NCBI RefSeq assembly: GCF_003334315.1
Contig: NZ_QOWR01000055.1
Direction: 5' to 3' (one strand)
Length of the DNA stretch: 30,752 bases
Source of the DNA: Escherichia coli
GTDB taxonomy: Bacteria; Pseudomonadota; Gammaproteobacteria; Enterobacterales; Enterobacteriaceae
Part shown: positions 1,340 to 1,505 of the stretch, one piece after another
Layout: every line of letters begins with the position of its first letter
Position numbering within the stretch: position 1 is the stretch's first letter
Notes under the pieces: generated by a model
Database searches by the model: none
The model's input: the letters and a program-made list of their open reading frames with translations, nothing else
What the model was told of the DNA's origin: nothing
Program-made: the position numbers and the translations under genes

Positions 1340-1505
1340 CCTTAATACCCTACGTTAAATGTTACTAATTTGTTGCTTTTGATCACAATAAGAAAACAAT
1401 ATGTCGCTTTTGTGCGCATTTTTCAGAAATGTAGATATTTTTAGATTATGGCTACGAAATGAGCATCGCCATGTCACCCTACATCTCATAAGAGGATCGC
1501 TTCTG
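1340..1505 (+). promoter_or_regulatory. csiD promoter/leader region (sigma-S and cAMP-CRP dependent in E. coli); exact elements not resolved
   Basis: AT-rich non-coding stretch directly upstream of the csiD ATG at 1506; a TCACA CRP-like half-site lies at 1383..1387. Assignment of sigma-S/CRP control is from established knowledge of csiD, not proven from sequence. Confidence 0.35.

Follow-up and report, generated by a model that had tools for sequence, protein, structure and literature searches.

The region upstream of csiD (glaH) in Escherichia coli: promoter, operators and leader inside an over-extended reading frame

In a 30,752-nucleotide stretch of Escherichia coli DNA (contig NZ_QOWR01000055.1; hereafter the window), a mechanical list of open reading frames places a 360-aa ORF with an ATG start at 1401..2483 on the + strand. 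The original prediction, made from the letters alone, held that this call starts csiD too early: it put the conserved N-terminus at ATG 1506 and took the bases from 1401 to 1505 for leader or promoter. The locus thus raises two questions, namely where csiD begins and what the DNA from 1340 up to that start does.

The DNA around positions 1340–1505 is the ygaQ(pseudogene)–csiD/glaH–lhgO–gabD region of E. coli, and the gene order csiD–lhgO–gabD–gabT–gabP in the window is that of K-12. From 1151 to 1528, every base is identical (100%) to the ygaQ–glaH intergenic region of K-12 MG1655 (window coordinate + 2787479 = K-12 coordinate), and therefore published mapping and experiments on K-12 apply directly to these bases. 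The regulatory region of K-12 csiDp has no differences from that of the window, while the two coding regions differ at a few positions, for example by one substitution at about 1529. A 551-nt query (1150–1700) found matches in 5383 of 5426 complete E. coli genomes, with strain CP53 at 100%, and the promoter stretch was present in 5378 of the 5426.

The start codon of csiD

Annotation, protein family, structure and conservation agree on ATG 1506. In RefSeq, the 978-nt glaH gene begins at the equivalent of this ATG (1506–1508) in CP53, K-12 and four other E. coli strains. The NCBIfam GlaH equivalog NF002814 scores 543.5 bits against a cut-off of 333, with profile positions 1–311 falling on residues 36–350 of the 360-aa ORF, and the alignment with the solved 325-residue PDB chain 2r6s likewise runs from residue 36. 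Translation from 1506 gives MNALTAV..., and the products of all 38 enterobacterial orthologous loci, which were taken from one-genome-per-species contigs, begin with MNA(L/F)(T/S)A at the matching ATG. Ahead of this ATG stands AAGAGGA (1490–1496), of which AAGAGG (1490–1495) matches AGGAGG at five of six positions. ATG 1506 is the real start of csiD and 1401–1505 is not coding, as had been predicted; the 360-aa call arises solely from an ORF rule that takes the first start after a stop. The two parts of the call are as follows.

1506..2483, + strand: csiD / glaH coding sequence (glutarate dioxygenase, 325 aa; RefSeq, NCBIfam NF002814, PDB 2r6s)
1401..1505, + strand: spurious 35-codon ORF extension, no biological feature (stops, no third-position bias, start of profile and structure, no Shine-Dalgarno)

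Could a 360-residue CsiD nonetheless be made from ATG 1401, on a transcript starting further upstream? An open frame with that ATG exists and is kept in the window strain, in K-12 and in three close Escherichia relatives. Against this, no conserved coding signal was found across 1401..1505. Among eleven Escherichia sequences (the window and ten others), variable columns in this stretch are spread 6/6/6 over the three codon positions, compared with 13/9/79 in the first 600 nt of the gene (Fisher p = 3e-4; binomial P for six or fewer of 18 at the third position, 5.5e-5). The three close relatives are the only ones of the 38 orthologous loci to retain an ATG at −105; Escherichia sp. E1V33 has ACG there. 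An in-frame stop lies within 105 nt upstream of the real start in 32 of the 38, and E. albertii has one at −45. No Shine-Dalgarno sequence precedes ATG 1401, the best match to AGGAGG in the 18 nt scanned being 3/6. The family profile and solved structures begin at residue 36, as above, and the stretch itself holds footprinted repressor sites and the core promoter. Finally, a terminator-like hairpin (TATCTGCCCCGATAAAACGGGGCAGATA, 1181–1208; 11 pairs, 7 of them G-C, weak T-tract) sits between the stretch and the amylase-like pseudogene upstream, just past the stop of the latter, and would insulate csiD from upstream transcription. We consider a 360-residue product extremely unlikely.

Similar start calls occur elsewhere. 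In the window, two long ORFs at 6710–8173 (gabP-like) and 17058–18533 (proV-like) have a GTG start well 5′ of the expected gene start, and the same first-start rule may have lengthened them. The Klebsiella pneumoniae orthologue KPN_00258 is given as 1017 nt in a supplementary listing of Kim et al. 2012, against 978 nt in E. coli, and this length is probably another over-extended start call for the csiD gene.

Conserved elements, the CRP site and the CsiR operators

To describe the DNA ahead of ATG 1506, positions −200 to +30 of the window and 38 enteric loci were aligned with MAFFT and conservation was summarised over 34 non-redundant enterobacterial sequences. Six blocks upstream of or across the start codon (1306–1510) are at least 90% conserved; a seventh, GCCGT at 1521–1525, lies inside the gene. 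The stretches between the blocks are variable, with indels that are not multiples of three. Mean conservation is 0.76 over 1359–1390 compared with 0.30 at 1306–1358. The six blocks, and one further conserved stretch, are listed here.

1381–1388: GATCACAA, at least 90% conserved, CRP half-site
1394–1398: AAACA, at least 90% conserved
1427–1443: AAATGTAGATATTTTTA, at least 90% conserved
1446–1459: TTATGGCTACGAAA, at least 90% conserved
1492–1496: GAGGA, at least 90% conserved, Shine-Dalgarno
1504–1510: TGATGAA, at least 90% conserved, start codon
1359..1373, no strand assigned: conserved block ATGTTACTAATTTGT (ATGTTAAATATTTGT in most enterics), no binding protein assigned

The surroundings of this region vary among E. 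coli strains. The upstream gene, ygaQ in K-12 nomenclature, belongs to the alpha-amylase family and occupies window positions 1–1170; it is a pseudogene broken into two ORFs in the window (127..759 and 898..1170), carries the RefSeq label 'internal stop' in the identical strain CP53 and is intact in some other strains. About 680 nt separate glaH from ssrA (tmRNA), which lies upstream of it, in E. coli HM670 and ECO20; their match to the window does not begin before 1307, the regulatory region being kept from about that point on. The extra DNA between ssrA and csiD in the window and K-12 (ygaQ and more) is consistent with an island insertion at ssrA. Two strains have probably lost the promoter. 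In E. coli VE-T9, an IS1A element abuts the start of glaH, similarity runs from window position 1515 and the gene is annotated as 9 nt shorter; for strain 2017-19-1CC, the promoter query matches window positions 1462–1508 only, a pattern suggestive of a break immediately downstream of the core promoter. These two are likely to be natural csiD promoter knock-outs.

The csiD promoter is reportedly sigma-S dependent and activated by cAMP-CRP from −68.5, in work by Marschall et al. in 1998, Germer et al. in 2001 and Metzner et al. in 2004. The original prediction likewise called csiD a sigma-S and cAMP-CRP dependent promoter, in agreement with literature on the identical K-12 sequence as far as it is summarised in PMC2859248, which quotes Germer 2001 for sigma-S dependence and for CRP at −68.5. 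The operon is reportedly under Lrp, H-NS and CsiR control in addition to cAMP-CRP (PMC6265302). Two elements of the upstream region bear on CRP activation.

1369..1390, + strand: cAMP-CRP site, 22-mer TTTGTTGCTTTTGATCACAATA, centre 1379.5 (conservation and published spacing)
1391..1401, + strand: A-rich stretch AGAAAACAATA, −57 to −47 relative to a putative +1 at 1448 (position)

The TCACA that had been pointed out at 1383..1387 is there, and is the conserved half of the CRP site. This right half-site is perfect, and the left half-site GTTGC (1372–1376) is weak (2/5). A matrix scan for CRP had been proposed; a consensus scan did return TGTGA-N6-TCACA matches with three mismatches in 10 core positions at 1372–1387 and, overlapping it, at 1378–1393, but such matches are no more common than chance would give, with 75 in the window against 97 ± 9 in shuffles. 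By simple arithmetic, about 0.3 occurrences of a given pentamer or its complement are expected in 166 nt. It is cross-species conservation that picks the register: ATCACA stands at the same place in 37 of the 37 orthologous loci with enough upstream sequence, and we chose 1372–1387 because the invariant bases there are those of the contacted GA-TCACA half-site. [quoted passage not shown]

CsiR is the second regulator with sites in the region. Knorr et al. 2018 describe its primary consensus as TTGTN5TTTT and ATGTN5TTTT, six nucleotides apart, and report binding to the K-12 sequence with a Kd of 10 nM that is relieved by glutarate, using filter binding, hydroxyl-radical footprinting and SPR (PMC6265302). 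A pattern search found a single operator pair of this kind, TTGTGCGCATTTT followed by TCAGAA and then ATGTAGATATTTT, at 1410–1441. The units of the array are as follows.

1410..1422, + strand: CsiR (GlaR) primary operator I, TTGTGCGCATTTT, containing TGCGCA (published consensus; inside the footprint and SPR fragments)
1429..1441, + strand: CsiR primary operator II, ATGTAGATATTTT, last six bases TATTTT (published ATGTN5TTTT; mean conservation 0.99 in enterics)
1448..1460, + strand: ATGGCTACGAAAT, third 13-bp array unit, 6 nt after operator II, and putative initial transcribed sequence (mean conservation 0.96)

Going by the primers of Knorr et al., the SPR fragment spans 1407–1463 and the footprinted fragment 1371–1491, whose lane was read between 1392 and 1456. 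The primary pair lies inside these fragments, so experimentally defined repressor sites fall within the supposed ORF; there is also a CsiR ChIP-seq peak in the csiD promoter (PMC5217608). Both primary sites of the E. coli csiD operator of this GntR-family regulator described by Knorr et al. are in the window and nothing differs. Two secondary CsiR sites may lie at about 1391–1403 and 1448–1460, as the 19-bp periodicity of the array would have it, and ATGGCTACGAAAT is probably one of them. The conserved block at 1359–1373, which runs from upstream of the CRP site into its left flank, resembles a CsiR unit (ATGT-N5-ATTT). It lies outside the CsiR-footprinted fragment and was rejected as a part of the array, being out of the 19-bp register. 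A small discrepancy concerns primer MS178 in the Knorr 2018 supplement, CTCATTTTCGTAGCCATAA, which has one T more than genome positions 1446–1463 (reverse complement CTCATTTCGTAGCCATAA); the extra T is probably a typing or text-extraction error.

The probable core promoter, transcription start and leader

The published spacing allows the transcription start to be calculated from the CRP site. Adding 68.5 to the centre at 1379.5 gives +1 at 1448, and TATTTT (1436–1441) then occupies precisely −12 to −7. Measured to the first base of TATTTT, the CRP centre is 56.5 nt away in 20 sequences and 57.5 nt away in another 16 (36 of the 38 sequences, and 35 of the 37 orthologous loci with ATCACA, the script having mis-measured two Hafnia loci), and thus CRP would be at −68.5 or −69.5 if TATTTT occupies −12 to −7. 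In the comparison with the known csiD promoter that had been suggested, then, the sequence is identical to K-12 and the CRP half-site and TATTTT fit the published spacing. We infer that TATTTT is the −10 hexamer and, back-calculating from the quoted spacing and conservation, that A1448 is probably the start. The corresponding features are these.

1448, + strand: putative transcription start (A), K-12 NC_000913.3 coordinate 2788927 (CRP centre 1379.5 + published 68.5)
1448..1505, + strand: 5′ untranslated leader, 58 nt (putative +1 to start codon)
1490..1496, + strand: Shine-Dalgarno AAGAGGA for ATG 1506 (GAGGA conserved; 5/6 to AGGAGG)

Several features of the sequence bear on this assignment. 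All 39 aligned sequences retain T(−12), A(−11) and T(−7) of TATTTT. Most species read TATTTT-TAA, matching T-T-A-A, which is part of the sigma-S extended −10 consensus. The −35 equivalent, TGCGCA (1413–1418), 17 bp upstream of the −10, is weak (3/6) and its role putative. A scan of 1100–1600 found no sigma-70 consensus promoter on the + strand, as expected for an activator-dependent sigma-S promoter. Some observations count against the model, among them the poor left CRP half-site noted above. With +1 at 1448, position −13 is an A and not the C typical of sigma-S promoters, and csiD has been used to study C(−13); in addition, a conserved GGCTACG at 1450–1456 matches the upstream half of the sigma-S extended −10 consensus. 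Among the supplements that could be searched, those of Cho 2014 and the Crp ChIP-exo paper did not contain a csiD start site, and csiD is absent from Levi-Meyrueis 2014. Full-text literature searches for promoter sequence strings returned unrelated papers only, and 'csiD' with '68.5' gave nothing relevant.

The conserved bases argue between this arrangement and two others. The −10 could be TAGATT (1442–1447), a 4/6 match to TATAAT, with +1 at about 1454, also an A, and the CRP box at TTTGATCACAATAAGA (1378–1393, centre 1385.5); this 16-mer likewise matches the CRP consensus with three mismatches and is again at −68.5. In that register, however, the invariant TCACAA becomes uncontacted spacer, while the right half-site TAAGA, whose bases would be contacted, varies across species. 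The hexamer fares no better, being broken at A(−11) or T(−7) in Pseudocitrobacter (TTACTT) and in one Trabulsiella strain (TAAGTG), whereas TATTTT is intact everywhere. We rejected this arrangement as very unlikely.

The GGCTACG motif leads to the other arrangement, in which the nearly invariant, sigma-S-like GCTACGAAAT (1451–1460) is the −10 and transcription starts at about 1465. It is established that the sigma-S extended −10 consensus includes K-C-T-A-Y-R, which GGCTACG fits, and the motif would supply the C(−13). The unit is moreover homologous to that of Pseudomonas putida in which 5′ RACE places the −10, the third operator unit (PMC6667623). Yet the TATTTT of Pseudomonas is CGAAAT in enterics, TACGAA lacks T(−7), and three species carry a change at T(−12) or A(−11). 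The start would also put the CRP half-site at about −85.5 instead of the published −68.5, and neither the consensus scan nor the alignment revealed a CRP-like or conserved element at 1386–1407. We regard this arrangement as very unlikely, and rejected it on the grounds of the CRP spacing, the missing T(−7) and the mutated −12/−11 positions.

With TATTTT as the −10 and +1 at 1448, the strong CsiR sites would span −38 to −26 and −19 to −7. Such coverage of the −35 and −10 is a classic repressor position. ATG 1401 would then be at about −47, upstream of the transcript, and so could not be a start codon; it is still upstream of the transcript if +1 is at about 1454 or about 1465. The original view of 1401–1505 as leader and promoter holds, given the lack of coding signal and the footprinted CsiR operators inside, and can now be divided into promoter (1401–1447, −47 to −1) and leader (1448–1505).

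The equivalent leader is 51–61 nt long across enterics. Its conserved parts are the Shine-Dalgarno region and the opening 13 nt, ATGGCTACGAAAT, for which a third unit of the operator array is the simplest reading; the middle (1461–1489) varies between species and has indels whose lengths are not divisible by three. Folding of the leader compared with shuffles gave a z-score of 0.02, indicating no notable structure, and Rfam returned no match at E ≤ 1 in 1150–1650. Two mini-ORFs fall in the putative leader: ATGGCTACGAAATGA (1448–1462), leaderless and beginning at the putative +1, and a 10-codon frame from ATG 1459 to TAA 1489–1491, whose end falls within the Shine-Dalgarno region. Citrobacter, Trabulsiella and others do not preserve the start or stop of these frames, and both were rejected as candidate short ORFs; from the alignment, both are probably meaningless.

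The operator array in other Gammaproteobacteria and a model for csiD regulation

Halomonas and Pseudomonas also carry the 13-mer ATGTAGA(T/C)ATTTT ahead of csiD. In Pseudomonas, the array is collinear with the enteric one, consisting of TTGTCGCCTAAAT, 6 nt, ATGTAGACATTTT, 6 nt and ATGGCGATATTTT, with ATGGCTACGAAAT of the enterics collinear with ATGGCGATATTTT. Halomonas shares this collinear order. It occupies 1410–1460 in the window, about −120 to −60 from the ATG in Pseudomonas, and about −110 to −35 (mostly −80 to −35) in Halomonas and relatives.

In P. putida KT2440, 5′ RACE placed the start 62 nt before the ATG, downstream of a −35 (TAGACA) and a −10 (TATTTT) spaced 17 bp apart, and CsiR protects the −35 and −10 regions until released by glutarate (Zhang et al. 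2019, PMC6667623). The 62-nt leader is similar to the putative 58 nt of E. coli. TAGACA-N17-TATTTT is present in 18 of the Pseudomonas loci compared, and four more have a variant hexamer. The P. putida −35 falls within the ATGTAGACATTTT unit, homologous to E. coli operator II, and the −10 TATTTT within the next unit. In Halomonas, by contrast with this placement, at least 11 of 18 loci have TTGAC(A/T/C)-N17, near the consensus TTGACA, directly ahead of the TATTTT of ATGTAGATATTTT. This is the hexamer assigned as the −10 in E. coli, and the Halomonas arrangement therefore provides independent support for that assignment. The comparison suggests that, relative to Pseudomonas, enterics and Halomonas have their core promoter shifted upstream by one operator unit.

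Activation differs as well. Pseudomonas and Halomonas have no GATCACA CRP half-site upstream, and among the more distant loci only two Serratia loci have one; sigma-S and CRP dependence are reported for E. coli only. As in class I CRP promoters such as lac P1, where CRP is at −61.5, csiDp has CRP upstream of the polymerase and a weak −35. It differs in that CRP is at −68.5, off the standard helical face, and in that activation is specific to the sigma-S polymerase, as PMC2859248 describes it. A tentative evolutionary reading, to which we would give somewhat less than even weight, is that the CsiR array is an ancient collinear module of the Gammaproteobacteria, that the promoter moved by one 19-bp unit and that enterics swapped a consensus −35 for CRP at −68.5 and sigma-S. 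It is also conceivable that the operator-like block at 1359–1373 lets CsiR or another factor compete with CRP.

We are confident that 1340–1505 is the regulatory region of the csiD(glaH)–lhgO–gabDTP operon of E. coli and not coding sequence. We envisage cAMP-CRP bound to its site, with centre 1379.5, by way of the invariant GATCACA half-site; from about −68.5 it would aid sigma-S RNA polymerase at a core promoter with the weak −35 TGCGCA and the −10 TATTTT, so that transcription would begin at about A1448. The GntR-family repressor CsiR would occupy a 19-bp-periodic array of 13-bp sites, its strong sites at 1410–1422 and 1429–1441 covering the −35 and −10, and the promoter would therefore be blocked until glutarate releases CsiR. 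The unstructured 58-nt leader would carry the AAGAGGA serving ATG 1506. Within this scheme, CRP and CsiR binding and sigma-S dependence are carried over from K-12 literature on the identical sequence, and the exact +1, the −10 and −35 assignments, the UP half-site and the secondary CsiR sites are putative.

The csiD promoter, operator and leader have already been described, and nothing here is new in that respect: sigma-S and CRP activation and glutarate-relieved CsiR repression of this lysine/glutarate catabolic operon are textbook-level in E. coli. The locus is a clean example of how the first-start-after-stop ORF rule swallows a promoter, repressor operators and a leader, and its importance is one of annotation hygiene only. 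It also illustrates that conservation together with one published spacing can place the parts of a promoter to the base.
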